DNA of 64,000 nt, taken from an uncultured delta proteobacterium. GTDB taxonomy: Bacteria; Myxococcota_A; Polyangia; Polyangiales; Polyangiaceae. The stretch lies in the NCBI GenBank assembly GCA_963696385.1, contig CAVOKF010000007.1, positions 608,001 through 672,000 of the forward strand, read 5' to 3'. Position 1 is the stretch's first letter; each line of letters opens with the position of its first letter. Both the position numbers and the translations under genes were made by a program. The notes beneath the pieces are model-generated. The model was not told the DNA's origin and did no database searches. It saw only the letters and a program-made list of their open reading frames with translations. Positions 6,708-25,550 of the stretch are shown in pieces.

Positions 6708-7064
6708 TCAGGGGTCGAGGTCGCTGAATAGGTCGTCGGCGCTCGAGGCTGCCGTAGTCGCGGGGGTATGGGTCGCCGCGGGATCCGAAACCGCGGCGGC
6801 GCCCAGATCGCCGTGGGTCACGCCGATCGCGTGGTCGAGCTCCGCGTCGTGGGCACTTTTCCGCCGGGCTTCGTCGTCGAGCACTTTACCGGCGAGCCCT
6901 CCCGCTACGCTGCCGATCATCATTCCTGCGACCGCGCCGGCCGGACCTGCGGCGCTGCCGATGAGCGCCCCCGCGAGCTCGCCCGCAACAGCGCCGACGT
7001 CCACACCGTGCTCATGAGCGTGGCCTATCGTCGGTCGATTCGTCCTCTGCTTCTTCATGGCCAT
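6708..7064 (-). CDS. Small glycine-zipper protein, paralogue of 12971..13357
   Basis: GAVAGELAGALIGSAAGPAGAVAG..GSVAGGLAG followed by ELDHAIGVTHGDLGA. Confidence 0.65.
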   Translation of the reverse strand: MAMKKQRTNRPTIGHAHEHGVDVGAVAGELAGALIGSAAGPAGAVAGMMIGSVAGGLAGKVLDDEARRKSAHDAELDHAIGVTHGDLGAAAVSDPAATHTPATTAASSADDLFSDLDP

Positions 7065-7210
7065 TGCCCTTATGGAGACGACAAAGCCGTCGGATGACGG
7101 GGCTCGATTGTTCGGGTCTCTGCATTCATCGCAAAAGGCTTCGAGTCGAGTCATGGCAGAGGACTCGGGCGCGCGACCGCCGGACACTCCCGCGGTCGCG
7201 GCCGCGCCGC

Positions 7211-7702
7211 TTACGACCTCTTTGCCGCCGTTTGAATCTCGACCTTCTTGGGCTGAAGGGCGGGGCTCTTTCTCACAGTGACGGTCAGCACGCCTTCCTT
7301 GAGATCCGCGACGACGTTGGCCGCGTCGACGCCGTCCGGAAGCGTGAATGTGCGGCTGAAGTCACCGAACGAGCGCTCGTACGTGTAGAACGTGTCGGTC
7401 TGCTCCTGATGCTCTGCCTCGCGCTTGCCGGCGATCGCGAGTCGGTTGCCCGTGACGGTGACTTGCAGATCGGATTCCTTGACGCCGGGCACATCCGCCT
7501 TGAACACGAAACCGTCCTTGGTCTCTTTGACCTCGAACTGGGGCGCAAAGCCTGCCGGCAAGTGCGGAAGAAGCGGAGACATCTCGATGAAGGGGTCCCA
7601 GTTCAACAGATCCCTCAGCACGCGACCGGGCTCCCACCGCACGGGAGCCGAGCTCGACGTGGGACGATTTCCGTCTTCCCTTCGAATGTTGATGTTGGGC
7701 AT
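7211..7702 (-). CDS. Hsp20/alpha-crystallin small heat-shock protein
   Basis: FKADVPGV, ERSFGDFSRTFTLP, ADLKEGVLTV; ATG 7702 with AAAGGA SD. Confidence 0.93.
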   Translation of the reverse strand: MPNINIRREDGNRPTSSSAPVRWEPGRVLRDLLNWDPFIEMSPLLPHLPAGFAPQFEVKETKDGFVFKADVPGVKESDLQVTVTGNRLAIAGKREAEHQEQTDTFYTYERSFGDFSRTFTLPDGVDAANVVADLKEGVLTVTVRKSPALQPKKVEIQTAAKRS

Positions 7703-7765
7703 GGATCGTTTCCTTTCGCCATAGACACCCGCGCTGTGCGCGACGTGTCCGTTGGTAGAAGGAAA

Positions 7766-7781
7766 TGCACGACCCGGGCCA
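7766..7781 (-). promoter_or_regulatory. Sigma-54 -24/-12 promoter for hsp20
   Basis: TGGCCCG-GGTC-GTGCA on minus strand (GG-N10-GC). Confidence 0.6.
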
Positions 7782-8089
7782 AGCGCGGCCTTGCGCACGA
7801 GGGCGCCGTCTCTTCCTTCATCTGCTTCCTGCTTCTCCCTCCAGGGTCCATCCACGGATTCTTCTTTTCCACCTCGCTCCACGCCTCATCCACGGATCCT
7901 CCACGGAGTTTCTTCATATATTTTTCCCTTCTTTCCTTTCTTGTCTTCCCTGCCCTGCCCCCTGCCCGCCGATTTTCCTCCCCGCGGAAATTGCACCGAA
8001 GAAGATGCCGTCCGCGGCAAAGGATGCGCATCGGACGCGCTGCCAGCGGCGCGATGCTCGTCACGGTCGGGGTGCCGCGCTTGTCCCGT

Positions 8090-8105
8090 GGGCACGATCC
8101 CTGCT
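8090..8105 (+). promoter_or_regulatory. Sigma-54 -24/-12 promoter for the phosphate acyltransferase
   Basis: GGGCACG-ATCC-CTGCT, 13 nt before ATG 8119. Confidence 0.65.
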
Positions 8106-8118
8106 CTCGGCAACGCCG

Positions 8119-9078
8119 ATGTTGCCAGCCCCTGCCCACGCCGGCGCAACGCACCGGGTGTTCGACGACCTGATTGAAGCGTGTCGTCGAGCGGCCGGCC
8201 CCGTACCCATGGCGGTGGTGGCGCCGACGACGGAGTTCGCCATGGGCGGCGTCGTCGTCGCAACCCAAGAGCACCTCATCGAGCCGATTTTCGTCGGAGA
8301 GATCGCCGCCATTCGCAGGGTCGCGCAGACGATGGGGTTTGACCTGACGCCCTACTCGATCGTGGACGCCAGCGACGACTTGGACGCGGCCCGAAAGAGC
8401 GTCGCTCTCTGCCGGTCGGGGCGATCGCATGCCCTGATGAAGGGAAGCTTGCACACCGACACGTTGATGCATGCGGTCCTCGAACACGACAGCGGCCTTC
8501 AAACGTCCAGACGCGTCAGCCACGTCTTCGTTCTCGACGCTCCGGCCTATCCGCGACCGCTCATCATCACCGACGCGGGGATCAACATTTATCCGACGCT
8601 CGAGGACAAGGTGCACATCGTTGCCAATGCGATCGACCTCGCGCACGCCATCGGAATCGAGATGCCCAACGTGGCGATCTTATCGGCCGTCGAAACCGTG
8701 AACCCGAAAATCATATCGACGATCGACGCGGCGGCGCTCTGCAAAATGGCGGACCGAAAGCAAATCACCGGCGCGGTGCTCGATGGGCCGCTTGCGTTCG
8801 ACACGGCCGTGAGCGCGCAGGCCGCGAGCGTCAAGGGGCTCACTTCCCGCGTCGCGGGGGTGGCCGATATCCTGGTCGTGCCCGACCTCGAATCCGGCAA
8901 CATGCTTGCCAAACAACTCGAGTATCTGGGGGGAGCCGAGCTCGCGGGGATCGTCGTCGGTGCGCGCGTGCCCATCGTCCTTACAAGCCGCGCCGATGCG
9001 TCGCGGGCGCGACTGGCGTCGTGCGCGGTCGCCGCAGCCTGGGTTCGCGCCGGTCAAAGCTCCCGGCTCCCGGCATAG
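8119..9078 (+). CDS. Phosphate acetyl/butyryltransferase (PTA_PTB family)
   Basis: LMKGSLHTD, TDAGINIYP, LSAVETVN, DGPLAFD, PDLESGNMLAK, PIVLTSRAD. Confidence 0.9.
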   Translation: MLPAPAHAGATHRVFDDLIEACRRAAGPVPMAVVAPTTEFAMGGVVVATQEHLIEPIFVGEIAAIRRVAQTMGFDLTPYSIVDASDDLDAARKSVALCRSGRSHALMKGSLHTDTLMHAVLEHDSGLQTSRRVSHVFVLDAPAYPRPLIITDAGINIYPTLEDKVHIVANAIDLAHAIGIEMPNVAILSAVETVNPKIISTIDAAALCKMADRKQITGAVLDGPLAFDTAVSAQAASVKGLTSRVAGVADILVVPDLESGNMLAKQLEYLGGAELAGIVVGARVPIVLTSRADASRARLASCAVAAAWVRAGQSSRLPA

Positions 9079-9152
<74 letters not shown>

Positions 9153-9162
9153 ACCCCCGGGG

Positions 9163-9675
9163 TCAGGATCTCGGCTTTTCTGCGGTGGACAGCTCGCGGC
9201 GGATCTCTTCCAGGGTGTCCTCGAAGAAGCGGTGCACCGCCGCTTGCGCGACACGATGGCCCACCGCCCGGTCCAGGGCAGTTCCGATCGGCCCGAACGG
9301 CGGCCGATAGTACCCCTCCATCTCGAGCTGCGTTTCCCCCGCGCTCACTTGCCACGCGGACAATTGCGCCTCCATCAAAGGAAACATCGGCGCCCCATGC
9401 GACGCTTCCCAAGCGATCTCGAGAGACAGCGACGGCGGCAGTCCCGCGATCGATTCTTCGTCACGGATTCGACGAATGTGCGTTCGAACGTCGACGGCCA
9501 CTTCGACACCGCCCACGCCGACGCGCAGACTTGCGGCGATCGAACCCGCCCGCGCCGCAGCCGAAGCCGTCGCACGCTGAAATAAGTCCAGCGGAGCACG
9601 CTGCAGCAGGGCACGGACCTGCTCGTAAGGATAGCCAACGTAGCCGTAGCAATGAACCCGTCTCCGATCATCCAT
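9163..9675 (-). CDS. Conserved hypothetical protein, possible SRPBCC/START-like fold
   Basis: FPLMEAQL..ETQLEMEGYYRPPFGPIGTALDRAVGHRVAQAAVHRF; ATG 9675 lies downstream of a sigma-54 motif. Confidence 0.65.
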   Translation of the reverse strand: MDDRRRVHCYGYVGYPYEQVRALLQRAPLDLFQRATASAAARAGSIAASLRVGVGGVEVAVDVRTHIRRIRDEESIAGLPPSLSLEIAWEASHGAPMFPLMEAQLSAWQVSAGETQLEMEGYYRPPFGPIGTALDRAVGHRVAQAAVHRFFEDTLEEIRRELSTAEKPRS

Positions 9676-9687
9676 GACGCCCACCAA

Positions 9688-9703
9688 AGCACGACGGGTG
9701 CCT
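9688..9703 (-). promoter_or_regulatory. Sigma-54 -24/-12 promoter
   Basis: AGGCACC-CGTC-GTGCT on minus strand, 12 nt before ATG 9675. Confidence 0.55.
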
Positions 9704-9829
9704 GCGTCACCCCTCGGGCCCTGACCGAGCGCGAGGCCGTCGCCGCGGCCGACGGCCCGCGCAGGGATTGCGCCGCCGCGAATGTTCTTCCGACAGCTCC
9801 CGGGCCATGGTCGAAGGGCCTCGGGGGGT

Positions 9830-9845
9830 TGGATTGAAAGTTGCT
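9830..9845 (+). promoter_or_regulatory. Sigma-54 -24/-12 promoter for the response regulator
   Basis: TGGATTG-AAAG-TTGCT; GGAGG SD and ATG 9872 follow. Confidence 0.55.
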
Positions 9846-9871
9846 CCGGTGTCGCGCGGAGGCATGCGACG

Positions 9872-11067: not shown

Positions 11068-11140
11068 GTCGGTCGAAGCCACGGAACTCGATACTCTCGC
11101 TGCCCGACCGGGTTTTGTGGGCCACCGCCGAGGGCGACGG

Positions 11141-11569
11141 CTACCGGCTCTCGCTCGCGTCCGATTGGTTCTGAATGCCTTCGCAAACGCTCGACAGCTC
11201 CCGACCCAGCAGCACGAACAGGTCGTCGGCGGTCACGATCCCGACGGTCTGACCTTGGTCGTCCACGACCGGAAGCCGGCGGATGCCGTGCAGGCGCATG
11301 CGCTCGGCGGCCGTCTCGAGGCCTTCGTGAACCGAAACCGTGATGGCGCCGTACGTGACGAAGTCGCCGACGCGCGCCGAGGTCGCGTCAATTCCTTCGG
11401 CCAGCACGCGAACGACGAGGTCGCGGTCGGTGACGATGCCGGCAAGGTGCCCCGACTCCTGGACAATCAGGCACCCGACGCCTCGGTCACGCATGGTGCG
11501 CGCGGCCCCTTCGACGGTTTCTTCGGGAGACACGGTGGCCACTGGAGCCCTGAATCGATCGAGCGACAT
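11141..11569 (-). CDS. CBS-pair protein (Hrp1/Rv2626c-like)
   Basis: AARTMRDRGVGCLIV, GIVTDRDL, MRLHGIRRLPVVD, GIVTADD. Confidence 0.9.
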   Translation of the reverse strand: MSLDRFRAPVATVSPEETVEGAARTMRDRGVGCLIVQESGHLAGIVTDRDLVVRVLAEGIDATSARVGDFVTYGAITVSVHEGLETAAERMRLHGIRRLPVVDDQGQTVGIVTADDLFVLLGRELSSVCEGIQNQSDASESR

Positions 11570-11582
11570 GGGGGGCGCACAC

Positions 11583-11598
11583 TGCAGCCGACATGCCC
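11583..11598 (-). promoter_or_regulatory. Sigma-54 -24/-12 promoter for the CBS gene
   Basis: GGGCATG-TCGG-CTGCA on minus strand, 13 nt before ATG 11569. Confidence 0.6.
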
Positions 11599-11734
11599 GC
11601 GGCCTGGGTCGCGCAACCGGCCGCTGGGTTTGCGCACTGGCGCAGCACGCCACCCCCGGCCCGGGCCGATGCGGGCTCTGCCGGGGCGCGCATGAATTGC
11701 ACCCTGACCGACCGCGTGACTGGTGAAAAGAGCA

Positions 11735-11750
11735 CGGCGCGGGGTTTGCC
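11735..11750 (+). promoter_or_regulatory. Sigma-54 -24/-12 promoter for the lipoprotein gene
   Basis: CGGCGCG-GGGT-TTGCC, 13 nt before ATG 11764. Confidence 0.55.
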
Positions 11751-11763
11751 CGTTGCACGCGGG

Positions 11764-12816
11764 ATGAGAACCGTCGTCTGCTCGGCCTCTGCTCTGCTTC
11801 TGGCAACCGCCTGTGCCTCGGAGAGGCCGGTGGACGCCGCTGCCATCGGGCCGATCGCACCGCAAGCGGAGGCTAGGGCGCCGGGTCATGCGCTCGTGAC
11901 GCAGGCGACATCCTGCTGGATGGGAGGACTCTGGAGCGATGCGCTCGGCGAGACCGACGAGGCCCGCACGGCCGGAATCGACCGCCGCTGCAATGCGCTG
12001 CTGCACGACATCGATCTCGCGGCAGCGGAACGCGGGCGTGCGCTTGCCGACCGGGTGCCGCCGCCGGCGCCCGAGGAAGCGTATTACCCGCTTCGAGCGG
12101 TGGAGCCGCACATCGTCGACGCCCTGGCGCACAAGGTCGAAGAGAGAGCGGCGCGCGACGCCGAGGAGGCCCCCCACGCGCGCGACCTCGTCGTCCTGCT
12201 TCGCGCGATAGCGGCCGCGGCGCGAGAGACCGTGCAGGCACGACGCGCCGCCGATTTCGTCAAAGACGACATCCGGGCGCAGTCCGGCGCGGCCGAGAAG
12301 ACCGCAGACGAAGCGGCGGCCGCCACCAAACTGGGACGCGGTGAGGGCCTCGACTCGCTCTGGCGTGCCGACGCGGGAGTGTACGCCCACGAGGCCCGGA
12401 GCCTTGCCATCCTGACCGCGCTCGATCGAATGCAGATTGCCCGGGGGCTGCCCAAGGCCCTCAAGATCGAAACAGTGCGCACGGGCTTTGCCGACCTGTT
12501 CGGAGTTTCCGCGCCGGCCGCTTCGAACGACGCCGCCAACGCCCCGCCGGAAGGCACGTGGCTCGCCTATTTGACCGAGGTTGCCGGAGCCGCCGGTCAT
12601 CCGATCCCGACCGACGCGCGCCATCCGCAAAACCGCGAGCCGCTCGCGTGGACGGGCGTCTTGGAAGGCATCGCCGATAGGCTTCGCGCCGATTCGGTCG
12701 TATTCCCTACAGGCACCCCCCTCGGCGATGTCGAGCGCGCCATCGCGATCCGCCTCGACGCGGAGTACGCGGACGAGCGAGCCGCCTACGCGGCCCATGC
12801 GGCGGCGGATCGCTGA
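11764..12816 (+). CDS. Hypothetical helical lipoprotein
   Basis: MRTVVCSASALLLATAC lipobox; SCWMGGLWSDALGE, WLAYL..VAGAAGHP, REPLAWTGVL motifs. Confidence 0.7.
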   Translation: MRTVVCSASALLLATACASERPVDAAAIGPIAPQAEARAPGHALVTQATSCWMGGLWSDALGETDEARTAGIDRRCNALLHDIDLAAAERGRALADRVPPPAPEEAYYPLRAVEPHIVDALAHKVEERAARDAEEAPHARDLVVLLRAIAAAARETVQARRAADFVKDDIRAQSGAAEKTADEAAAATKLGRGEGLDSLWRADAGVYAHEARSLAILTALDRMQIARGLPKALKIETVRTGFADLFGVSAPAASNDAANAPPEGTWLAYLTEVAGAAGHPIPTDARHPQNREPLAWTGVLEGIADRLRADSVVFPTGTPLGDVERAIAIRLDAEYADERAAYAAHAAADR

Positions 12817-12909: not shown

Positions 12910-12925
12910 CGGCACGAGGCTCGCT
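12910..12925 (+). promoter_or_regulatory. Sigma-54 -24/-12 promoter for the glycine-zipper gene
   Basis: CGGCACG-AGGC-TCGCT; GGAGGT SD and ATG 12971 follow. Confidence 0.55.
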
Positions 12926-15240: not shown

Positions 15241-15256
15241 CCGGGCTCGATCGGTC

Positions 15257-17338: not shown

Positions 17339-18729
17339 CGCGACGGCCCGAGGAACATCCCGCTCACGACGACGGGACGACCGGACCCGTCGTCTCGCGA
17401 GATGCGAATGCGAAACGGAAGGTCCGATCGAAATCGGTCGCGCGAAACGGACAGGAAAACCGGGATTCGCACGTTGGACAGCGACGAAACAAGAGGCGCG
17501 GGAATCGAGACGAGCGCGCGCATCGCGTCATCGGCTTGGACGTCGATGCGGTAGCGTTGCTCGATCGCGCGCTTGTTGACCAGGTGCAGCTGCACCGCTT
17601 CGCGCACCTCGCCGCCTTCGACGACGAACGGCTCACCGGGCAAGCGCAAGAGCGTGGCTTCGAAGTCGTTGCGGCCGCGAACCGCCACGAGCGCGACGAC
17701 CGCACCCAACACGAGCAGCGCCGCATAAAAGACCAGGCGCGGGCGCACGAACCTTCGGCGACGGCCGGCGAGTCCCTCTTCCGAGTCGTAGCGGATGAGA
17801 CCCCGCGGGCGTCCGAGCCTATCCATGACGTCGTCGCACGCGTCGATGCACGCCGTGCACGCCACGCACTCGAGCTGAGTGCCATTTCGAATGTCGATGC
17901 CGGTCGGGCACACCACGACGCAGCGCTTGCAGTCGACGCAATCGCCGGCGCCCGCGGTCGCCTTCTTGCCGCGCGGCTCGCCCCGCCGTCTGTCGTAGCC
18001 GATGACCCACGAGTGCTTGTCGAGCAGCGCCGACTGCAATCGCCCGTACGGACACAGAACGACGCAAAGCTGCTCTCGAAACCACGCGAAGTTCAAGTAG
18101 AAGACCGTGCTCATGGCCAGCACCCACCCGAAGGCTTCGGGGTGCGCGGAGGGCCTCTGGCGCACCATACGGAGGGTCGCCGGAAGCGACGCAAAGTAGC
18201 TCAGAAAGATGTGAGCCACGATCACCGCGCATAGCGCGTAGAGCGCGTGGGTCGCCGTCTTTCGCGCGACCTTACCCGCGTTCCACGGCCCGCGGTTGCG
18301 GCGAATTCGCTTCTCGCGCGGTCCCTCGACCCAGCGCTCCACACGCCGAAAGATCCCCTCGAGAAACACGGTCTGGGGGCATGCCCATCCACACCAGACT
18401 CGGCCGGCCACGGCCGTGGCCACCACGAGAGCGAACCCAATGCCTGTCAGCAAGAAAAACAGCAGCCACGTGTCCTGCGCATTGAACGTCGTGCCGAATA
18501 GATAGAGAGCGCGCGCATCGACATCGACGAACAGGGCCGGATGCCCGCCGACCCGAAGCCAGGGCAGCACCGCCCACAACGCGATGAGCGCGGCGTACAC
18601 CAGGCTCCGGGCGCGCTGAAATCGTCCGTGCACGTCGGCCGGTTGAATGGCATGACGCCGGCCGTCCGAAGGCAGCGAGTCGGAGGGCCAATCGCGAGCG
18701 TTGGCGAGCGGCAGAGGCGTCCGGCTCAT
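17335..18729 (-). CDS. ccoG: cbb3 oxidase accessory 4Fe-4S protein CcoG/FixG
   Basis: GRVWCGWACPQT, REQLCVVLCPYGRLQS, CVDCKRCVVVCP, ECVACTACIDACD. Confidence 0.93.
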   Translation of the reverse strand: MSRTPLPLANARDWPSDSLPSDGRRHAIQPADVHGRFQRARSLVYAALIALWAVLPWLRVGGHPALFVDVDARALYLFGTTFNAQDTWLLFFLLTGIGFALVVATAVAGRVWCGWACPQTVFLEGIFRRVERWVEGPREKRIRRNRGPWNAGKVARKTATHALYALCAVIVAHIFLSYFASLPATLRMVRQRPSAHPEAFGWVLAMSTVFYLNFAWFREQLCVVLCPYGRLQSALLDKHSWVIGYDRRRGEPRGKKATAGAGDCVDCKRCVVVCPTGIDIRNGTQLECVACTACIDACDDVMDRLGRPRGLIRYDSEEGLAGRRRRFVRPRLVFYAALLVLGAVVALVAVRGRNDFEATLLRLPGEPFVVEGGEVREAVQLHLVNKRAIEQRYRIDVQADDAMRALVSIPAPLVSSLSNVRIPVFLSVSRDRFRSDLPFRIRISRDDGSGRPVVVSGMFLGPSR

Positions 18730-19295
18730 GGGACCGCAAGCTCGCCTTGCGGCGCCTTGCCGCCCGGCGCGTTCGTGTCCTTGATGGACAACACGAACGC
18801 GACGACGGATTCCACTCGATCGTCGCCGAGCTGCGGGCCCCAAGCAGGCATGCCCTTGTTCGGAACGCCCCCGGACACCGTCCGGAACAGGTCCATGGGG
18901 CGGCTGCCGTGCAGCCAATAGGCGTCGGTCAAGTTGGGGCCGATGTTGCCGCCCCCATCGGCCCGATGGCAGGGAGCGCACGTGCTCGTGAAAGTCTCCC
19001 TCCCCTTGGCCAGAGTGGCCGGATCTTTGGACAGCGTGACGAGAAGCGCGTCATCAATCGTGCCGCGCGATCGGGCGCGCTCGGCGTCGGCCGCCCGCTC
19101 GGCCGCGATCTCCTTCGCATAGGCCTGCAGAGGCGTTTCGATCGCGTCCAACCGTCGGCCAAACCAGTAGACGAGTGCGAATACCACGGCGCCGTACAGC
19201 GTGAGCTGCCACCAGAGCGGCAGCTTGTTGTCGTGTTCGACGATGTCGTCGTAGACGTGAACCCGCTCGCGAGCGGAGGAGTCAGTGTCGCTCAC
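18726..19295 (-). CDS. ccoP: cbb3 cytochrome c oxidase subunit III, monoheme
   Basis: HVYDDIVEHDNKLPLWW N-terminus, a single CAPCH, GPNLTD, KGMPAW; GTG start inferred. Confidence 0.88.
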   Translation of the reverse strand: MSDTDSSARERVHVYDDIVEHDNKLPLWWQLTLYGAVVFALVYWFGRRLDAIETPLQAYAKEIAAERAADAERARSRGTIDDALLVTLSKDPATLAKGRETFTSTCAPCHRADGGGNIGPNLTDAYWLHGSRPMDLFRTVSGGVPNKGMPAWGPQLGDDRVESVVAFVLSIKDTNAPGGKAPQGELAVP

Positions 19296-19458
19296 GGCGA
19301 ACCTCGCCTTCGAGGGGCATCCGTGCCGCATCCGCCATTTCATCGGCGGACCTCGTCAGCACGCGCACGGCGGCGACGACCCAGATGCCGAGAAAACCAA
19401 ACATGGCGAACAGCGGCAAGAGGAGCAATGGAGAATGCTGCAGGAGCTCGTTGTGCAT
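19282..19458 (-). CDS. ccoQ: CcoQ-like small subunit
   Basis: 58 aa with one TM helix and AARMPLE tail; position between ccoO and ccoP; AAAGGA SD. Confidence 0.65.
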   Translation of the reverse strand: MHNELLQHSPLLLLPLFAMFGFLGIWVVAAVRVLTRSADEMADAARMPLEGEVRRERH

Positions 19459-19480
19459 GAGAGTCCTTTGGGGTCGGTTC

Positions 19481-21844
19481 TTACTTTGCGACGGACACGG
19501 CGGCGCCCGGCCCTCGCAACGGTTGGGGGTGGACGCCGAGCCGCTGCAAGTACGCGATGAGCGCGACGATCTCGGACTTCGGATCGACGTTGGCGGCGCC
19601 GTCGTCCTGCAGGTTCTTTGCAATGTCCCGACCTTGCGCCTCGGCATCGGCACGCGCGTCCGCGAGATCCTGGGCGCCGTAGGGAACGCCGACCGATCGC
19701 ATCGCGCGCATCTTGGTCTCGGTCCGCGCCAGATCGACTTCATCGGTCGCGAGCACGGGGAAGGGCGGCATGTTGGACCCGGGCGAGATCGCGCGCGGGT
19801 CCACCAAGTGCCGATAGTGCCAGAGGCTCGGATACTTGCCGCCCTCGCGTGCCAGATCGGGTCCGGTGCGCTTGGATCCCCACTGGAACGGGTGGTCGTA
19901 GGTGGACTCGGCCAACGTCGAGGGATCGCCGTAGCGGCGGGTCTCGAACGCGAAGGGCCGAATCATCTGCGAGTGGCACGTGTAGCACCCCTCTCGCACG
20001 TACACGTCCCGGCCTTCGAGCTCGAGAGCCCGATAGGGCTTGGTCTCGGCCGCGACGGCCGCGTCGCTCGGAGTGGCGAGCAAGGACGGCACGAGCTCTG
20101 CGATCCCGCCGGCGAGCACGGCGATCACCGCAAAGGACGTGAAGTAGAGCGCCCGCCCTTCCAGGATCCGGTGCCACTGCGGCTTGTTGCGGTCCACGGC
20201 CAGCCGGATCGCGATCACCCCGAGGATGGCCGTCACGACCGCAACCGTTGCCAACAGGATGCTGGCCTCGTTGTTCACGACGGCCATCGACCCCGCGAGA
20301 ACCGCCACGATCGTGATGAGAATCACCGGCTTGCCGAAAAGAACCTCTTCCCAAGGGGCCTCGGGGACCCGGGAGCGGGCCACGGTCACCGTGACCTCGC
20401 CGTCGACGGCGTGGCCCGCGAGAGCGGTGCGGGCCAGATTGTAGGCCATCGCGATCATGCCGATGAGGTACATCGATCCGCCGGTCAGCCGCATCCAGTA
20501 CATCGGGCGAATCGCGTCGATCGTCTCGACGAAGTTGGGGTACGTGAGCGCACCTTGCGCGTCGGTCGCACGCCACATCAGACCCTGGGTGATTCCGCTC
20601 ACCCACATCGACACGACGTACAGCAGAATGCCGAACGTGCCGATCCAAAAGTGCGCGTCCGCGAGCCTTCTCGACCAGAGCTCGCGGCCGTACAGGCGCG
20701 GCACCATCCAGTAGAACATCCCGGCCGCCATGAAGCCGTTCCACCCAAGCGCGCCGCTGTGCACGTGACCGATGATCCAATCGGTGTAATGGGCCAGACC
20801 GTTCACCGCCTTGATCGACAGGAGAGGTCCCTCGAAGGTCGCCATGCCGTAGAAGGTCACCGCCGCCGCCATGAACTTGAGAACGGGGTCTGTGCGGACC
20901 TTGTCCCAGGCTCCCCGGAGCGTCAAAAGGCCGTTGAGCATTCCGCCCCAGCTCGGCGCCCAAAGCATCACGCTGAACACCATTCCGAGCGTCTGGGCCC
21001 AGTCGGGCAGCGCCGTGTTGAGAAGGTGATGGGGCCCGGCCCAGATGTACACGAAGATGAGCGACCAAAAATGAATGACGCTCAACCGATAGGAGTACAC
21101 GGGCCGGTTGGCCGCCTTCGGCAGGAAGTAGTACATGATACCGAGCACGGGCGTCGTGAGGAAAAACGCGACCGCGTTGTGCCCGTACCACCACTGGACC
21201 AGAGCGTCCTGGGCCCCACCGTAAATGGAATAGCTCTTGAAACCGGAAACGGGGACCGACAGCGAATTGACGACGTGCAAGACGGCGACGGTCACGATGG
21301 TGGCGATGTAAAACCAGATCGCCACGTACAAATGCTTCTCGGCGCGGCGCGCCAGGGTCCAGAAGAACTGGATGGCAAACACGATCCACACCACGGCTAT
21401 CGCGATGTCGATCGGCCACTCGAGCTCCGCGTACTCCTTGCCCTGCGTCAGCCCGAGCGGCAGGGTGATCGCCGCGGCGACGATGATGAGCTGCCACCCC
21501 CAGAAGTGAACCTTGGCCAACAGATCGCTCGGGAGCCTGGCTTTGACCAGCCGCTGGGTCGAGTAGTAGATGCCCGCGAAGATCATGTTGCCGACGAAGG
21601 CGAAGATCACCGCGTTCGTATGCAGCGGTCTCAAGCGCCCGTACGTGAGGTAGGGGGGCAGATTGGCCTGCCAGAACGCGAGCTGGAGTGCGATGGTCGC
21701 TCCGACCAGCATTCCGACGAGGCCCCAGATCACCGAGGCGGCGACGAACCAGCGGGCGATCGAGTCGTTGTAGACGATGCGCCGCGTTTCGAACTCGACC
21801 GGATGGCCGGGAGGCGTGGATTCAACCGTCACCGGTACGCTCAT
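19481..21844 (-). CDS. ccoNO: Fused cbb3 cytochrome c oxidase subunits I and II (CcoN-CcoO)
   Basis: [30 protein letters not shown]; CcoO part [23 protein letters not shown]. Confidence 0.95.
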
Positions 21845-21984
21845 TTCTTCTCGTCCTCCAGGGGCAACAACGCGAGTCGGTCGGCATGATCGAAGTCGCG
21901 CTGGCGGCAGGTGAACGCGAAGAGCAGCACCGAACCAACGACGAGCATCAGGCTGACGAACACTTGTAGGGTCACGACTTCCAC
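21841..21984 (-). CDS. ccoS: cbb3 assembly protein CcoS/FixS
   Basis: 47 aa with TM helix then [15 protein letters not shown]; lies between ccoI and ccoN with overlapping stop/start. Confidence 0.72.
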
Positions 21985-24353
21985 AGCGAACTCCTTGGCG
22001 AGAGCGCAACCAGCGTGGCTGCAATCGTCGTCAGTGAGCTCACGGGCATGAGCACCGCGCATGCCAGCGGCGGCATACGCCCCGCGAGCGCAAGACCGAC
22101 GGTTAGAATGTTGTAAGCGAGGGCGATCGCGAGATCGACGCGCACGACTTGCGCCAGAGCGCGAGAAGTGCGTAAAGCCAGTCGGATCGGCGCGAGTCCT
22201 GGCGTGACGAAGAAAAAGTCGGCTCGCGCCGGTACGAAGGGGCGGTCGACTGAGGGCGTACCCGACACGTACGCCCGATCGATGGCGAGCGCGTCGTTGA
22301 CGCCATCGCCCACGAACAGGGTGTCGTCCCAATCCACGCGCCCGAGAAAGCGGGCCTTGTCCTCGGGGTTCTGATTGCCGATGCACCGGCGCTCGGCCAT
22401 GTGGCTTGCGCGGCCGGCGGCATCGACGCGGGCCTGAGTGTCTCCGCTCAGGAGCCACACCTCGTAGCCATCGCGAACCAGGGCATCCACCTCACCGGCG
22501 GCATCCGGACGCAGGCGCTCGGTGGTGGCAAAGCGAGCCAGAAGATCACCATCGACGCCGAAGGCGACGTCGAAGGCAACGTCGGCGCACGCCCGAGGGG
22601 CCACCCACGAGAGCCGCCCCAGCCGAAAGCGCCGGCTCGAGGAGACGAGCTCCACTCCCAGGCCGGGCGATTCGACCACCCGCGCGCCGGCGTCGAGGGT
22701 CGCGCCGTGGGCGTCGAGGACTTCGCGGATCGCTTGACTCTTCGGATGTGCGCTTCGACTCACGAGATCGACCAGGGCCTGGCGCGACACCGAATCGAGC
22801 GCCAGCGCGGCCTCGGGGTTGGCAAGCTCCAAGGCGCCGGTCGTGAGGGTCCCGGTCTTGTCGAAGACAATGCGTCGGACGGATCGTGCCCGATCGAGAA
22901 ACCCCGCCCGCCGGACAAACAGGCCGCGCCGGCGCAAGCCTGCCTGAACGATTTCGTACGCGAGCGGAGTCGCGATTCCGAACGCGCAGGGGCATGTCAC
23001 GATGAGGATCGACGTCGTGACGCTCAGGGCACGCGCGATGTCTCGCGTGGCGGCGTACCAGGCTCCGAAGCCGACGATCGCGATGCCCAGCACGCCGAGC
23101 ACGTAGAACCGTGCGAGCCGCTGCCACCAGGCCGACGTCCGCCCGCCGTCGCCCCCTCGCCGTTCGGGCTGACGAAGCAAGACGCGGAGCGGCGACGACG
23201 CGAACGCGGTCCGTGCGATCAGCGTGCAGGCTTCGGTCCCGGCGGCAAAGGCCCCGGCCGGCACGGTTTGCCCCGCAACGTAGGTGCGGGGCATGCTCTC
23301 GCCGTTGATCCAGTCGAGTGAGAACCAGGCGCTCGGGGCCTCCAACCGGGCGTCCACGGCCAGCAAGTCACCCGGTGCGAGCAGCAGCGTGTCGTCTGCG
23401 GCGATCTCCGCACATCGCGTGAGGCGAACCCGCCCATCCACGATGCGCCGTGCGAGTAGGCTATCGGTGCCGTCGCTTGCGAGCAGCCAGGCTCGGTTGC
23501 GCTCGACGACCCGTTCCTGAAGCCACCGCCCGACGAGCATGAGGGCGATGAACACGTTCAACGTGTCGAAGTACGCCCCCGCCGATCGCCGTGTCACGTA
23601 CGAATGGATGGATCCGGCGAAGGCGAGCGCGATGCCGAGCGCGATAGGCAAATCGAGGTGAATCAGACGCTGACGCAGCGCCTGGAGAGCGGAGCGGAAG
23701 AATACGGATCCCCCCACCGCGACCGCGACGGCGCTCAGCGCCACGTTGAGGGTGGTAAACAGCGAAAAGAGGGGCCCCTGGTCGAGCCCGGCATAGATCG
23801 CGATGCCGAAAATCATCGAGTTCATCGCGACGGCCGCGCAGATGCCCATGCGCCACACCAGATCCTGCGACGGCGGCGCCCGCTTCGACGGCGGCCCGAA
23901 GAGGTAGCCGAACCGTTCGACGCTCAAGACGAACGCGCGCAGGTCGAAATCCGCACGAACGATGAGATCGACGCGCCCGAGCGAGGGGTTGACCAAAACG
24001 CTCTCGTGACCCTCTTGGCGGGCAAACATTTGCTCGACGAGCCACACGCATCCGACGCAGTGGAGGCCTTGCACGTCGAGCGTGACACGCGCATGGCCCC
24101 GAGCGGTCCGCACGTCGTCCTCAACGGGCTCGAGCCACTTCGTGTCCCGCCGGTCGGCGCGCGTCGGCGGAGGCGCCGCCCCGCGTGCGCCGCCCAAGGC
24201 ATAGTAGCGATCCAGGCGCTCGTGGCGCAGGAGGGCGTGCACGGCCTCGCAGCCGGGGCAGCAAAAGTCACCCCGAGCTTGGGCGTCCAAGGACAATCCG
24301 CAATGAAGGCACGCTCCGGGGCCGCACGGGATGGAGTCGGCGGCGAGGACCAT
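21972..24353 (-). CDS. ccoI: Cu-translocating P1B-type ATPase CcoI/FixI
   Basis: CLHC..CCPGC, HCVGC HMA motif, TCPCA, DKTGT, HP, GDGVND, YN; TGES appears as NGES. Confidence 0.9.
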
Positions 24354-24419
24354 GGTGGGGATTCGCTGACGGGGGGCATCGTCCTGCAGGGTCCAGATGC
24401 CCGGTCAGAACACCCTGGC

Positions 24420-24917
24420 TCAGCCCGCGCCCTGGGCAGGCGACGTTGCGCCGGGCAAGGCCTGGTCAGTTTGCGGCCCGTGGACGGTCAGCACCGGGCA
24501 GCCGGCCATTCTCACGACGTGTTCGGCAACGCTTCCGAGCAAGGCCCGGGGCAGACCGTGGCGGCCTTGGGTGCCCATGACGATGAGATCCGCTCCCATG
24601 CTTTCCGCGACCTCCCGGATCTCGTTGTATGGCGTGCCGCGCCGAAGCATTCCGCCGATCTCGACGTCGACCGCCCGGGCCCGCGCCACGACGCCATCGA
24701 GCGCGTTTTGCGCCGCACGTGCGACCGCCGATTCGAATTCAAAAGTTGCCACCATCGAGTCGGGAAAACCGTAGGACGGGCATTCGTAGACGTGCAGGAC
24801 CGTGATGGTTGCGCCCAACCTCCCGGCCAAGGCGATCGCGTAACCGAGGGCACATTCGGCCGGCTCGCCGAAGTCGTGCGGCACCAGGATCCGGCGAATC
24901 TCGGGAGTGAAGGTCAT
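24420..24917 (-). CDS. Universal stress protein (UspA family)
   Basis: RILVPHDF, LHV, ADLIVMGTQGRHG...LLGSVAEHVVR..CPVLTV. Confidence 0.93.
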   Translation of the reverse strand: MTFTPEIRRILVPHDFGEPAECALGYAIALAGRLGATITVLHVYECPSYGFPDSMVATFEFESAVARAAQNALDGVVARARAVDVEIGGMLRRGTPYNEIREVAESMGADLIVMGTQGRHGLPRALLGSVAEHVVRMAGCPVLTVHGPQTDQALPGATSPAQGAG

Positions 24918-25357
24918 GCCCGCCGGGCCGATGCAACGGCCCGGCCATCGCCACTCGGCCCGAGCAGAACCACGAGCGCGCGCAACGCATCGACGGATGT
25001 AAAAATGCCCGCGACATGGCCGTGGTCCACCACGGCGACGCACCCGTACTTGTGCTGCGCCATCTCGGCCGCCACCTCCGCCAAGGGCACGTCGGGGGCA
25101 ACGGCGTACACCTCGGTCGACATGGCCTCTTCGACCCTGACCGTCGATGGATCGACGTCGCGCAGCGTTTCGACGAAGAGCACGTCGCGCTGCGAGAGCA
25201 CTCCGACGATTCGTCCGCCATCGAGCACCGGAAGATGCCGGACGTCGTGGGCACGCATCCGGTCGAGCGCGGTCGACAACGACTGGCTGCGGCCGATCGA
25301 GTGCGGCGAGGGGGTCATGAAATCGCGTATGGGGCAATGCAGTTCATGCCTGGTCAT
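24914..25357 (-). CDS. CBS-pair protein
   Basis: MTPSP, MRAHDVRHLPVL, GVLSQRD, MAQHKYGCVAVV, GIFTSVD; stop overlaps USP start. Confidence 0.9.
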   Translation of the reverse strand: MTRHELHCPIRDFMTPSPHSIGRSQSLSTALDRMRAHDVRHLPVLDGGRIVGVLSQRDVLFVETLRDVDPSTVRVEEAMSTEVYAVAPDVPLAEVAAEMAQHKYGCVAVVDHGHVAGIFTSVDALRALVVLLGPSGDGRAVASARRA

Positions 25358-25370
25358 GGCGATCGACACC

Positions 25371-25386
25371 AGCAAGGATGTGGCCA
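25371..25386 (-). promoter_or_regulatory. Sigma-54 -24/-12 promoter heading the CBS-USP-cco operon
   Basis: TGGCCAC-ATCC-TTGCT on minus strand, 13 nt before ATG 25357. Confidence 0.7.
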
Positions 25387-25550
25387 GCCGAAGCGGCGGC
25401 ACTCTTGAACGGCCATGCTGCGCACGGGATGCGCGGAAGCGCAAATCGTGCATGCGCCTTCGACGTGCGCGAGGAACGTGCGCTAGGAAGAAGGATCCAG
25501 GTGGGCGACTCCGCCCCAGGGTGGGAACAGTCGGTGCAGGAGACCTGACG

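Follow-up and report, generated by a model that had tools for sequence, protein, structure and literature searches.

A sigma-54-type gene island in a peat myxobacterium of the Polyangiaceae, likely under an NmpR-related activator

The closest known system to the island described here is the NmpRSTU two-component relay of Myxococcus xanthus with its NmpR regulon (PMC11841059, PMC6211767), which a first-pass annotation of this DNA had not named. NmpR is described as the NtrC-type activator of an "oxygen utilisation" regulon; it binds GCGCA-N5-TGCGC, and its action requires a sigma-54 site (PMC11841059). Its reported targets are a CBS operon, a USP, a P-type ATPase with a cbb3 oxidase, hemN-hemerythrin, and its own genes, and hypoxia is reported to induce one of these targets (PMC11841059). 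The same account describes NmpU and AfGcHK as active with oxygen bound (PMC11841059). AfGcHK, from Anaeromyxobacter sp. Fw109-5 (PDB 5OHE, 5OHF, 6OTD), has its globin joined directly to the kinase, and its partner is described as a receiver-only, NmpT-like protein.

The DosS/DosT-DosR (DevR) system of Mycobacterium tuberculosis likewise senses gas through haem by means of a histidine kinase. HspX, Hrp1, and Rv2004c are members of its regulon. The first-pass annotation had likened the island to this regulon, and the likeness holds for the target families (small heat-shock protein, USPs, and CBS-pair protein) but not for the control system: DosR works with a GAF-haem sensor, a NarL/LuxR-type regulator, and sigma-70 promoters, whereas the island has a globin-haem sensor, an NtrC-type rather than DosR-type regulator, and sigma-54 promoters. 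What we took to be the DosR-box core matched four times in the window (the whole stretch of 64,000 nt analysed, from an uncultured peat myxobacterium of the Polyangiaceae) against 5.25 expected, with 0 matches in the island. The resemblance is one of analogy, not homology of the control system; the USPs of the DosR regulon are cited in PMC11841059. A high-affinity cbb3 oxidase and its ccoGHIS-type assembly genes are also tied to oxygen sensing under FixLJ-FixK and FNR/ANR control. There the sensors are of the PAS-haem or Fe-S kind and FNR/FixK boxes accompany sigma-70 promoters, whereas the island oxidase lies behind a sigma-54 promoter and an NmpR-type site, an arrangement also reported in M. 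xanthus (PMC11841059).

The window was compared with 31 genomes of the genus and with a family relative from another genus (G206); its own genome is called G000. Gene calls were backed by Pfam and NCBIfam profile searches, which mostly bore out the earlier gene list. The exception was an APH domain assigned to the AAA_33 protein, whose N-terminal 340 residues gave no APH match at E values up to 5. Five genes have no or almost no assigned family, namely 6708-7187(-) and 12971-13357(+), both with weak glycine-zipper matches, 9163-9675(-), 10507-11067(+), and 11764-12816(+). The RNA data are assembled metatranscriptome contigs, which cannot map transcript starts; three studies of wetland and peat yielded contigs with island genes.

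The island shares with the Nmp system a candidate activator of the NtrC type (REC-AAA+-HTH_8) for sigma-54 promoters and GCGCA/TGCGC half-sites spaced by 5 nt. In both, a haem sensor kinase with a protoglobin domain heads the pathway, and the targets include a CBS-domain gene, a USP, the genes of the system itself, and a P-type ATPase with cbb3 oxidase. We give a probability of about 0.8 to the reading that the island holds at least eight sigma-54-type units, likely activated by one NmpR-related NtrC-family protein encoded on another contig. All eight GG-N10-GC motifs previously listed are present and correctly oriented, the one before the REC gene being in register at 9830-9844. They were scored with an RpoN matrix (PWM) trained on the organism's own genome, and these scores are given in bits below.

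The expectation of shared control is supported by a common candidate activator site with the published NmpR sequence. Unbiased k-mer enrichment returned TTGCGC/GCGCAA, with a palindrome at spacer 4 only, and the published site was tested afterwards as an independent motif. Among 108 promoter regions, 19 contain a perfect GCGCA-N5-TGCGC, compared with 0.4% of 1720 background regions; when up to one mismatch is allowed, the figures are 56/108 and 3.4%, and half-sites at other spacers reach 3-15%. Sites of this type were found in seven of seven gene families tested; most lie 40-80 nt ahead of the -24 element, and many are extended by N4-GCGCA. This third half-site after 4 nt differs from M. xanthus, for which two 15-nt sites 14-15 nt apart are described. 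The genome holds 56 perfect sites, three of them in the window (9759, 22140, and 25420). The activator would bind these sites and open the island's sigma-54 promoters, its targets being Hsp20, phosphate acyltransferase, two CBS-pair proteins, a USP, an SRPBCC-fold protein, a REC protein, and two further proteins of unassigned family.

One such unit consists of a CBS-pair gene (24914-25357, minus strand) and a USP gene (24420-24917, minus strand) that overlaps it by 4 nt, both with Pfam matches. The CBS start was moved 39 nt upstream, to 25357, where the first CBS domain is complete and the same ATG is conserved among orthologues. This ATG lies 15 nt past the -12 C of the promoter TGGCCA-CATCC-TTGCT (25372..25386, minus strand; 7.2 bits). 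By eye, a near-identical TGGCC[GA]C..TTGCT with the ATG 13-15 nt on is found at 14 of 29 homologue loci, and 22 of the 29 pass the matrix at 2.5 bits. Upstream lies a perfect composite activator site, GCGCA-CGGGA-TGCGC-GGAA-GCGCA (25420..25443), the sole perfect 24-nt composite in intergenic DNA genome-wide.

A ccoI-like P-type (copper) ATPase gene (21972..24353; E1-E2_ATPase, Hydrolase, and ATPase-cat_bd matches) shares the minus strand with a cbb3 gene set whose start and stop codons overlap (16601..21975; NCBIfam NF011053, 1193.9 bits). The set runs from a 44-aa ORF in the ccoS position (21841-21975, with overlapping start and stop codons and no Pfam match) through a fused ccoNO (19481-21844; Pfam and NCBIfam), ccoP (18726-19295), and a ccoG-like gene (17335-18729) to a DsbD_2 gene (16601-17338), the last three identified by Pfam. 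Unlike in the Nmp system, the ATPase gene itself contains the cbb3 promoter: a -24/-12 element in its 3' end (22052..22066, minus strand; 14.1 bits) is predicted to drive the cbb3 genes, and the oxidase would thereby be activated too. The element is retained at 11 of 19 orthologue loci, with a rare GCA codon invariant, and one relative has a 20.6-bit intergenic site in its place. The ATPase gene has RNA at a depth of about 0-0.5, and ccoNO at 13-51. Seventy nucleotides upstream of the promoter lies a composite activator site (22140..22163), a perfect GCGCA-N5-TGCGC with an N4 pair. This promoter is a ninth, outside the first-pass list.

Divergent promoters of a 170-aa protein gene (9163..9675, minus strand) and a REC gene share the composite site GCGCA-N5-TGCGC-N4-GCGAA (9759..9782), in which the published NmpR consensus is perfect and the adjoining N4 half-site pair has one mismatch. 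The 170-aa protein has no Pfam or NCBIfam match. Its AlphaFold model (pLDDT 74, pTM 0.71) predicts an SRPBCC-type (Bet v 1/START-like) ligand-binding fold: the top Foldseek PDB matches shown are mostly of this type (e.g. ZhuI, 3tfz, E 2e-06, TM about 0.5), as are the nearest named Atlas clusters. Its promoter, AGGCAC-CCGTC-GTGCTTTG (9689..9703, minus strand), scores only 3.5 bits, with the ATG at 9675, 14 nt past the -12 C. At homologue loci, GGCA[CT]-N5-NTGC with its C 11-19 nt before the start occurs in 25/28, against 186/5496 genes genome-wide (3.4%). The REC promoter, TGGATT-GAAAG-TTGC (9830..9844, plus strand; 9.2 bits), predicts a start near 9856, with a GGAGG Shine-Dalgarno sequence preceding the ATG at 9872. 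TGG-N9-TTGC lies 17-34 nt ahead of the start at 11 of 12 homologue loci, and the first base of an RNA contig (X14) falls at 9857. The gene encodes a single-domain response regulator (9872-10510, plus strand; PF00072, 4.3e-22), and its stop overlaps, at 10507-10510, the start of a gene for a 186-aa protein of no assigned family (10507-11067, plus strand), which has no promoter of this type of its own. RNA contigs over the two genes (9878-10482 and 10453-11006) overlap.

The second CBS-pair gene (11141..11569, minus strand; PF00571, 3.4e-26) has its ATG at 11569, 15 nt past the -12 C of GGGCAT-GTCGG-CTGC (11584..11598, minus strand; 2.9 bits). Among 14 orthologue loci, the element lies 13-15 nt before the ATG in eight and about 30 nt before it, with a Shine-Dalgarno sequence, in two; one is ambiguous and three have none. 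An RNA contig over this gene (X5, 11073-11563) has adapters that indicate antisense, plus-strand RNA. The divergent gene (11764..12816, plus strand) encodes a 350-aa protein with a lipoprotein-like N-terminus and no Pfam or NCBIfam match, found in 16 of 41 genomes searched, all within the genus, with a paralogue at G000:C6:391763-392878. Its ATG at 11764 is 15 nt past the -12 C of an 11.3-bit promoter (11735..11749, plus strand), and an X5 RNA contig begins at 11771. Homologues in four other genomes have 12.8-16.4-bit sites upstream, giving 5/13 loci with our own included. Between the two promoters (11631..11702), a site search found a perfect half-site pair TGCGC-N4-GCGCA at 11631-11644 and GCGCA-N5-TGCAC at 11688-11702.

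The gene hsp20 (7211-7702, minus strand; Pfam HSP20, 6.8e-27) and a downstream glycine-zipper small protein gene (6708-7187, minus strand; Gly-zipper_Omp, 3.5e-06) likely form one transcription unit (6708..7702); overlapping metatranscriptome contigs cover 6500-7744 at depths of 116-337 (X14) and 28-70 (X19). The promoter TGGCCC-GGGTC-GTGC (7767..7781, minus strand; 12.9 bits) predicts a start near 7755 and a 53-nt leader with a Shine-Dalgarno sequence. RNA contigs from two studies stop at 7744, and a DNA run goes on past this point. The nearest orthologues retain TGGCCCG-N4-GTGC, and sites scoring 8.9 bits or more occur inside 110 nt at 11 of 17 homologue loci. Divergently, a phosphate acetyl/butyryl transferase gene, pta (8119..9078, plus strand; PF01515, 5.3e-41), whose product falls in the NCBIfam phosphate acetyltransferase subfamily NF008852 (426.6 bits, cut-off 413), has its ATG 15 nt past the -12 C of a 12.1-bit promoter (8090..8104, plus strand). 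Orthologue loci have sense sites of at least 9 bits in 9/21, against 1/21 antisense, with the start codon mostly 15-18 nt past the C. An NmpR-type site with one mismatch, GCGCATCGGACGCGC (8026..8040), lies 50 nt upstream of the pta -24 element. The last listed promoter, a candidate for the second glycine-zipper gene (12971-13357), lies at 12910..12924 (plus strand; 11.4 bits); it is the weakest of the set, retained only in G003, the nearest relative, with a few paralogues having other sites. RNA contigs break off at 12858 and restart at 12962.

Control might be mixed, with the NmpR-type activator serving only units with clear sites (170-aa/REC, CBS/350-aa, CBS-USP, cbb3, and perhaps pta) and with hsp20 and the 12971 gene under other enhancer-binding proteins, such as a heat or envelope stress activator; we regard this as possible, if doubtful. 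The genome encodes about 44 activators, in our genome no site with at most one mismatch precedes the 12971 gene or lies 200 nt or less from the hsp20 -24 element, three TCCACGGA repeats lie upstream of hsp20, and hsp20 RNA is 40-100 times above that of other units (in X14, depth 337 with no other unit above 8.7; in X19, 69.5 with none above 3.8). Against this stand NmpR-type sites (at most one mismatch) at 9/15 hsp20 homologue promoters in the genus, an hsp20 paralogue in our own genome (C7:1284387) with a composite site and a 10.9-bit promoter, and the 8026 site, which could serve both divergent promoters. A 12000-fold hsp20 depth in X5 was discarded as a signal of this genome, its contigs being only 95-98% identical and so from a relative. 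Among the RNA contigs listed, none bridges the hsp20-pta or CBS-350-aa promoter gap. A point against the main reading is an X5 contig (9400-9770) that covers part of the 170-aa/REC gap and passes the candidate promoter, reaching 95 nt ahead of the 170-aa ATG. A DNA run belonging to the same study spans all three gaps.

Two further genes lack a promoter of this type of their own. The first encodes a protein of 520 aa whose C-terminal domain is an AAA_33 kinase (13678..15240, plus strand; PF13671, 2.4e-26); no such promoter or activator site was found in 13358-13677 upstream, RNA depth is 0-2, and the gene adjoins CBS and USP genes in G008 as well. We treat it as a neighbour of the candidate regulon. 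The second encodes a REC-HisKA-HATPase_c hybrid kinase of NmpS-like architecture (14886..16400, minus strand; Pfam). The assembly has a frameshift near 15331, where the HATPase_c match ends at 89/111 positions and resumes in another frame, and an X15 RNA contig has one base fewer at 15331. This gene has almost no RNA; of the 31 genus genomes, 14 have matches at E <= 1e-60, which mostly lie close to the activator or to other genes of the island.

Consistent with the earlier proposal of control in trans, the window holds no enhancer-binding protein gene. The candidate activator is an NtrC-type protein encoded at G000:C6:437717-439105, so that, unlike in the Nmp system, regulator and targets are on different contigs; it is likely a relative of M. 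xanthus NmpR. Its gene lies on the same contig as island genes, within 20 kb, in 20 of the 23 genus genomes that have it, and among the eight genomes without an orthologue, ccoNO and the 170-aa gene were found in only one (G022). Best matches outside the genus are at most 65% identical, compared with 63% for an own-genome paralogue on C5. Upstream of the activator gene and the gene it adjoins, which encodes the genome's only globin-coupled histidine kinase, are NmpR-type sites and a 14.5-bit sigma-54 site. G008 has the globin kinase, activator, CBS, USP, and 170-aa genes in one array, divergent from CBS-ATPase-cbb3; the own-genome orthologues are on C6, with the activator 91-93% identical.

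The kinase carries the sole Protoglobin domain in the genome, in a single Protoglobin-PAS-HisKA-HATPase protein. Its globin domain matches that of AfGcHK (5OHE; residues 5-156, E 2e-35), with a Tyr and a His kept that we take to be the distal and proximal haem residues. Unlike in AfGcHK, the globin leads into a PAS domain and an NmpS-type kinase core, and the adjoining gene encodes a sigma-54 activator. Over residues 186-529, identity is 44% (241 bits) with the REC-PAS-kinase from the full U-T-S-R array of G206 and 35% (115 bits) with the globin kinase core of that array. The kinase thus differs from the Nmp relay in being one fused protein with a core closer to NmpS than to NmpU, and NmpT is absent at the regulator locus. 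It looks like a short circuit of that relay, an NmpU-type globin on an NmpS-type PAS-kinase core, and would do the work of NmpU, NmpT, and NmpS by reporting oxygen via haem and phosphorylating the activator.

The low-oxygen link proposed in the first-pass annotation gains substance from this kinase beside the activator and from cbb3 genes with the same site and promoter type. By analogy with NmpRSTU, we lean toward a regulon that is on when oxygen is scarce. The same wiring could carry the opposite sign or another ligand: a fused kinase active with haem-bound O2 (or NO/CO) would turn the island on when oxygen appears in otherwise anoxic peat and off in strict anoxia. AfGcHK and NmpU are described as autophosphorylating with haem and O2 bound, so a one-step path from kinase to activator could switch genes on with oxygen; no NmpT or NmpS orthologue stands between sensor and activator, the sign inversion by NmpS of M. 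xanthus may be missing, and O2 is the substrate of the cbb3 oxidase. We nevertheless consider this unlikely, given that the kinase core is of the NmpS type, described as active at low oxygen in M. xanthus, and that relatives' islands carry pyruvate:ferredoxin oxidoreductase, Pta, PFK, and PPDK, which would point to oxygen limitation.

That the promoters themselves are real -24/-12 elements, as the label "sigma-54-wired" had implied, is judged decisively from motif conservation. Position is kept before orthologues at seven of the eight sites among the 31 genus genomes, the exception being the site before 12971. Matrix scores are weak singly (2.9-12.9 bits, three of them low at 3.5, 2.9, and 7.2, with a false-discovery estimate for individual sites of 0.3-0.9 for the self-trained PWM), but jointly the eight exceed chance: the island's intergenic DNA (about 2.1 kb) holds four sites of at least 11.3 bits against 0.36 expected (Poisson about 5e-4), an expectation based on 224 sites of this strength across 1.28 Mb of intergenic sequence. 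Sigma-54 is in use across the whole genome, which has one rpoN copy and 52 PF00158 matches (about 44 strong); seven of eight perfect TGGCAC-N5-TTGC copies are intergenic, and 90 intergenic sites of at least 14 bits were seen against 17 expected. The notion that the motifs are chance occurrences in GC-rich DNA, with sigma-70-type promoters under FNR/FixK-like or other regulators and a clustering that reflects shared function only, would fit the modest single scores, the lack of enrichment of the loose consensus in the window (TGGCAC-N5-TTGC, at most two mismatches; 74 matches against 58.4 +/- 7.3 in shuffles), and the description of FNR/FixK as the usual control of cbb3 oxidases (PMC11841059), but it is highly improbable and already contradicted by elements that keep their position while flanks diverge at 45-60% protein identity, as well as by the spacer-specific enrichment of the activator site, the linkage of the activator gene to the island, and the antisense control at pta.

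With its stress, fermentation, and high-affinity oxidase genes, the island represents the known Nmp system in a Polyangiaceae form: activator type, site, and core targets (CBS, USP, and ATPase-cbb3) are shared, and compared with M. xanthus it is rewired and enlarged. It departs in three respects. In place of the NmpU-T-S relay stands a fused globin-PAS-kinase. Five promoters have the start codon 14-15 nt past the -12 C, so that, unlike in the Nmp system, leaderless or nearly leaderless mRNAs are predicted. Finally, there are more targets: this promoter type is also found at the lipoprotein-like 350-aa family, the REC protein, and glycine-zipper proteins, as well as at Hsp20, phosphate acyltransferase, and the SRPBCC-fold family, and neither Hsp20 nor phosphate acetyltransferase came up in a term search of PMC11841059. 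Judged by their promoters, Hsp20, Pta, and the SRPBCC-fold family would be the targets that the Polyangiaceae version adds to the Nmp system.

Nearly all of the genes that the first-pass annotation had named in the island (6708..25443 of the window) were recovered by Pfam and NCBIfam in the source genome (G000; 6.94 Mb, 66% GC, eight contigs), of which the window is C7:608001-672000. Searches of the N-terminal half of the AAA_33 protein gave no APH domain, which that annotation had assigned to it. The hybrid histidine kinase is real, a minus-strand gene at 14886-16400(-) with REC-HisKA-HATPase_c architecture by Pfam, and the 455-aa plus-strand ORF 15237-16604, obtained from a codon-usage gene call, was rejected as spurious. 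The assembly carries a frameshift in this kinase gene near 15331, where the HATPase_c match is interrupted and resumes in a different frame; an RNA contig from a public run is one base short at exactly 15331, and the one-base frameshift reflects either an error in the assembly or a break specific to the strain. The right-end CBS gene starts at 25357, not at 25318; this ATG is conserved in orthologues and restores a complete first CBS domain. The ccoNO gene starts at 21844 and is coupled to a 44-aa ORF (21841-21975), which overlaps the stop of the ATPase gene and has no Pfam match; calling this small ORF "ccoS" is a guess from position alone. For annotation, this means that two start codons are corrected and that a missed gene and an internal promoter are added. 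Elsewhere in the window, a run of about 10 CCCGAC hexamers occupies 9079-9162, where pta and the 170-aa gene converge, and tandem paralogues of 604 and 605 aa without a Pfam family (55104-56918 and 57077-58894) have internal motif matches that recur at a 1976-nt offset.

Sigma-54 is clearly used by this genome. There is one rpoN gene, with a Sigma54_DBD domain (C8:141849), and PF00158 has 52 matches, about 44 of them strong. A matrix trained iteratively on the genome (consensus YTGGCACG-N4-TTGCW) finds 90 intergenic sites of at least 14 bits versus 17 expected. Seven of the eight perfect copies of TGGCAC-N5-TTGC are intergenic, as are 155 of the 421 one-mismatch copies, in a genome with an intergenic share of only 18% by our own gene calls. 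At C4:976000-1130000, about 20 near-consensus sigma-54 promoters are densely clustered.

The island had been proposed to be wired to sigma-54 through eight sites, and this is borne out, with comparative conservation as the main evidence. All eight sites (before hsp20, pta, the gene of a 170-aa protein, a REC gene, the CBS gene starting at 11569, the gene of a 350-aa protein, the gene at 12971, and the CBS-USP genes starting at 25357), as well as a ninth at 22052-22066(-), have GG and GC dinucleotides 10 nt apart in a gene-oriented, TGGCAC-N5-TTGC-like element. The genome-trained matrix scores the nine sites at 2.9-14.1 bits; the eight proposed ones score, in the order just given, 12.9, 12.1, 3.5, 9.2, 2.9, 11.3, 11.4, and 7.2 bits, and because of these scores they are unconvincing when taken singly. 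Four sites of at least 11.3 bits fall in the approximately 2.1 kb of island intergenic DNA, where 0.36 are expected.

For each gene, homologues were fetched from the genus (31 genomes in the collection searched), and the upstream DNA was inspected. The -24/-12 element is kept in place while the flanks drift at seven of the eight sites and at the internal cco site. Upstream of the 170-aa gene, GGCA[CT]-N5-NTGC with its -12 C 11-19 nt before the ATG is present in 25 of 28 loci (two of 30 loci, with alignments starting beyond residue 20, were dropped), among proteins that are 45-57% identical and flanks that are unalignable; the background for this geometry is 186 of 5496 genes genome-wide. The element is likewise found in 11 of 12 loci of the REC gene (two of 14 dropped by the same rule), 11 of 17 of hsp20, and 5 of 13 of the 350-aa gene, and for pta in 9 of 21 loci in the sense orientation versus 1 of 21 in antisense. 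For the CBS gene at 11569, eight of 14 loci have it at 13-15 nt, two at about 30 nt with a Shine-Dalgarno sequence, one is ambiguous, and three have none. Upstream of the CBS gene at 25357, TGGCC[GA]C..TTGCT followed by an ATG after 13-15 nt is near-identical in 14 of 29 loci, and 22 of 29 pass the matrix. The site at 12910-12924, before the glycine-zipper gene at 12971, is kept in the nearest relative only. The ninth site (14.1 bits) lies within the last codons of the ATPase gene and is retained at 11 of 19 orthologue loci, all with the same GCA codon, which is otherwise rare; in one relative, a 20.6-bit intergenic site takes its place. The 21 pta loci include L027 of genome G010, and G010 and G042 entered the presence/absence tallies; the conclusions are the same without both.

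A candidate binding site for an activator was sought in 108 regions reaching at most 200 nt upstream of the -24 elements of seven gene families. The words enriched in these regions are TTGCGC/GCGCAA and TGCGCA, and the palindrome TTGCGC-N4-GCGCAA, allowing two mismatches, occurs in 33 of the 108 versus 2.7% of 1720 background intergenic stretches, with spacer 4 only. In Myxococcus xanthus, NmpR, the regulator of the NmpU-T-S-R relay, is reported from EMSA and reporter mutations to bind GCGCA-N5-TGCGC (PMC11841059). This motif, which is independent of our own data, was tested on the same 108 regions: perfect copies are present in 19 (17.6%) versus 0.4% of the background, and in silico copies with at most one mismatch in 56 (52%) versus 3.4%. 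Other spacers from 0 to 12 give 3-15% of the regions, i.e., the enrichment is specific to spacer 5. The site occurs in all seven families, its centre mostly 40-80 nt upstream of the promoter. As judged from sequence, the N4 palindrome and the N5 site are parts of one putative composite, GCGCA-N5-TGCGC-N4-GCGCA. A candidate picked by eye, TGCGC-N4-GCGCA (40 perfect genome copies), was rejected; by itself it is not kept upstream of the CBS orthologues, and it is sensible only within the composite. A MAFFT alignment of 13 CBS upstream regions had the promoter as its sole conserved block and was set aside.

The source genome has 56 perfect 15-nt sites, 18 of them intergenic, and the island accounts for three of the 56 (9759, 22140, and 25420). 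The last of these is the sole perfect intergenic 24-nt composite in the genome, in which a third half-site after 4 nt is the common form. The site at 22140 precedes the promoter inside the ATPase gene by 70 nt, and RNA depth is about 0-0.5 over the ATPase gene versus 13-51 over ccoNO; given this position and this contrast, a separate cbb3 promoter is likely. Sites with promoters thus placed precede the CBS-USP genes (25372-25443), the cbb3 genes (22052-22163), and a pair of kinase and activator genes on contig C6, where NmpR-type sites accompany a 14.5-bit promoter. Second copies of the 170-aa gene (C7:1227294-1227788) and of hsp20 (C7:1284387-1284884) each have their own composite site and -24/-12 element. 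Between the hsp20 and pta promoters, a pyrimidine-rich stretch at 7848-7905 contains three copies of TCCACGGA (two of them CATCCACGGAT), and these repeats may be a site for another hsp20 regulator.

An activator acting in trans had been postulated, rightly, and the linked NtrC-type regulator gene is C6:437717-439105. In G008, the best-assembled relative (three contigs), the same genes lie within 75 kb, and a divergent array adjoins CBS-ATPase-cbb3. The order of this array is a Protoglobin-PAS-HisKA-HATPase kinase (hereafter the fused kinase), a REC-Sigma54_activat-HTH_8 activator, CBS, USP, an unknown gene, and the 170-aa gene. Its orthologues in the source genome are the kinase at C6:435939-437555, the activator (91-93% identical; REC, sigma-54 AAA+, and HTH_8 domains), the CBS gene at C6:439242-439967, and the USP gene at C6:435175-435660. 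Activator orthologues of at least 75% identity are present in 23 of the 31 genus genomes. In 20 of these, the activator shares a contig with cco, CBS, REC, or 170-aa genes and is less than 20 kb away from them; the other three are the source genome, its nearest relative (G003), and G016. Among the eight genomes lacking the activator, which are kin and not independent, ccoNO and the 170-aa gene are each found in one alone (G022). Outside the genus, a phylum-wide search with the activator gave identities of at most 65%; its closest homologues there (52-65% identity) define 19 loci, and in 11 of them a globin kinase lies no more than 8 kb away, often accompanied by USP, CBS, or cco genes. When the activator alignment was used to search contigs, the matches were confined to generic NtrC relatives of other phyla and included no named myxobacterium.

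A second putative regulon patch lies at C6:389487-397141, where genes for a BON protein, PFK, a Pyridox_ox_2 protein, and a PPDK-type protein stand behind such promoters (C6:389-397 kb). The BON-domain gene has a 17.1-bit sigma-54 site; a PEBP gene and a 350-aa paralogue are also present, and several genes of the patch have NmpR-type sites.

The fused kinase carries the sole Protoglobin domain of the source genome (4.7e-33). Its globin matches the AfGcHK structure 5OHE (2e-35) with a Tyr and a His aligned, which we take to be the distal and proximal haem residues. For NmpU, haem binding is reported to require the His (PMC11841059). In G206, a genome of the same family but another genus, a Protoglobin-kinase, a REC-REC protein, a REC-PAS-kinase, and the activator follow the published NmpU-T-S-R order, and two perfect GCGCA-N5-TGCGC sites, 14 nt apart, precede the activator gene. 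This array (7458-13675 of locus L383, G206:C1:1077083-1094423) has a USP gene at either end. Residues 186-529 of the fused kinase match the G206 REC-PAS-kinase at 44% identity (241 bits); against the G206 globin kinase, the globin is 37% identical, and the kinase core is weaker (35%, 115 bits). From these pairwise scores, with no tree, we read the fused kinase as an NmpS-type kinase in which the receiver would have been replaced by an NmpU-type globin. It lies directly upstream of the activator in 13 of 26 genus activator loci, and the remaining loci are mostly in genomes with a window-type REC-HisKA-HATPase kinase nearby. Neither a separate NmpT (REC-REC) nor a separate NmpS (REC-HisKA-CA) is present at the C6 locus. 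The REC-HisKA-HATPase gene of the window has NmpS architecture, but tblastn gave no match to the G206 NmpS-like gene. The island of G008 also encodes a Protoglobin-STAS protein (15374-16327 of locus L208, G008:C3) beside STAS, HATPase_c_2, and SpoIIE-phosphatase genes, which looks like a globin-headed partner-switching module.

The promoters, sites, linkage, and domain content are established, and the mechanism that we propose builds on them. The haem of the fused kinase would report O2, the kinase would phosphorylate the activator, and the activator would bind the composite sites and let sigma-54 polymerase open the promoters. The oxygen link drawn by the first-pass annotation was right, in that a protoglobin kinase adjoins the activator gene. 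The likeness that it saw to the Mycobacterium DosR regulon did not stand: DosR is a NarL/LuxR-type regulator with GAF-haem kinases, whereas the linked regulator here is of NtrC type and the promoters are of sigma-54 type. The core of the DosR box has four matches in the window versus 5.25 expected, none of them in the island. The proper comparison is with the Nmp system (PMC11841059, PMC6211767): the regulator is of the same NtrC-like type (REC, sigma-54 AAA+, HTH_8), and the predicted pathway likewise begins with a protoglobin (haem) sensor kinase, a homologue of NmpU/AfGcHK. Here, too, GCGCA-N5-TGCGC motifs predicted as sites stand upstream of the sigma-54 promoters of targets. The Nmp targets include genes for a CBS-domain protein, a USP, and a P-type ATPase with cbb3 oxidase; of their counterparts here, CBS-USP and the cbb3 genes are preceded by sites and promoters. 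The M. xanthus system also regulates itself, and the C6 kinase and activator genes are likewise preceded by sites and a promoter. The arrangement of the sites may differ: S1 and S2 of M. xanthus are 14-15 nt apart, and the source genome commonly has one site plus the N4 half-site. A literature search returned no publication joining a globin-coupled histidine kinase with sigma-54.

In M. xanthus, oxygen-bound NmpU is reported to silence NmpS, leaving NmpR active at low oxygen, and one NmpR target is described as hypoxia-induced (PMC11841059). If the globin influences the NmpS-type core in the way that the phosphorylated receiver influences it in M. xanthus, the island would be switched on at low oxygen. 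The oxygen signal could also have the opposite sign, which we regard as unlikely: the islands of relatives also encode pyruvate:ferredoxin oxidoreductase, PFK, PPDK, pyruvate kinase, and additional USPs, and these companions, together with the C6:389-397 kb patch, count toward the low-oxygen direction.

Parts of the island appear in five metatranscriptome runs; the four that were aligned come from three studies and are labelled as wetland or unspecified metagenome. Depth over contigs is a poor measure, and at 98% identity (0 mismatches) hsp20 contigs reach 337 (run X14) and 69.5 (run X19), other island genes at most 8.7 and 3.8, respectively. The hsp20 depth of 12000 in run X5 is attributed to a close relative because it vanishes at 98% identity. 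Contigs show neither starts nor strands; three assembled contig ends (7744, 9857, and 11771) are all within 11 nt of predicted starts, which is a weak hint, and the X5 contig 9400-9770, which extends into the 170-aa/REC gap, disagrees with the predicted start position. None of the RNA contigs listed bridges the hsp20-pta or CBS-350-aa gaps, and the DNA run of X5's study bridges every promoter gap. The ATPase gene, the AAA_33 gene, and the promoter gaps have no RNA contigs, which is not proof of silence. Another X5 contig (11073-11563), which begins just past the stop of a 186-aa gene, has adapters at both ends that suggest plus-strand RNA antisense to CBS 11141-11569.

The predicted structure of the 170-aa protein has a helix-grip fold (pLDDT 74, pTM 0.71), and the Foldseek matches listed are mostly of SRPBCC/Bet v 1 type (ZhuI, PYL receptors, CoxG; best E 2e-06, TM about 0.5). 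The model suggests a small hydrophobic-ligand binder, of an SRPBCC-fold family of which each genome has two to three copies.

At five promoters (pta, 170-aa, CBS 11569, 350-aa, and CBS 25357), the ATG follows the -12 C by 14-15 nt, with no space for a Shine-Dalgarno sequence; hsp20, REC, and the 12971 gene have leaders with GGAGG. The short spacing is conserved in those families, and genome-wide there is a peak at 14-16 nt among high-scoring sites, with 48 genes having a site of at least 8 bits at 11-19 nt versus about 15 expected by arithmetic from intergenic density. RNA contigs agree loosely for pta (beginning at 8135-8155) and for the 350-aa gene (11771), and one contig reaches 95 nt upstream of the 170-aa ATG. 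The contig 11073-11563, once taken as support for a leaderless CBS mRNA, was dropped, as its adapters show plus-strand, antisense RNA. A limited literature search gave no description of sigma-54-driven leaderless mRNAs, and excerpts of the PexR paper describe a leaderless mRNA for a sigma-A promoter only (PMC12754779). A bolder reading, held tentatively at a probability of about 0.4, is that in this genus a four-protein oxygen relay has collapsed into a chimeric kinase, an NmpU globin on an NmpS PAS-kinase core, driving a sigma-54 regulon with leaderless mRNAs whose ATG spacing is conserved across paralogues and genomes.

Judging by the very strong hsp20 signal in wetland metatranscriptomes, these genes are active in situ. 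About a dozen genes whose function is unknown or only vaguely defined are assigned a likely regulator with its DNA site, and the analysis extends the oxygen circuit of one laboratory species, M. xanthus, to uncultured Polyangiaceae of peat and wetland. The fused kinase would illustrate how domain fusion can rewire the circuit, and, if the leaderless geometry proves correct, transcripts from sigma-54 promoters could pass directly to ribosomes with no Shine-Dalgarno leader.
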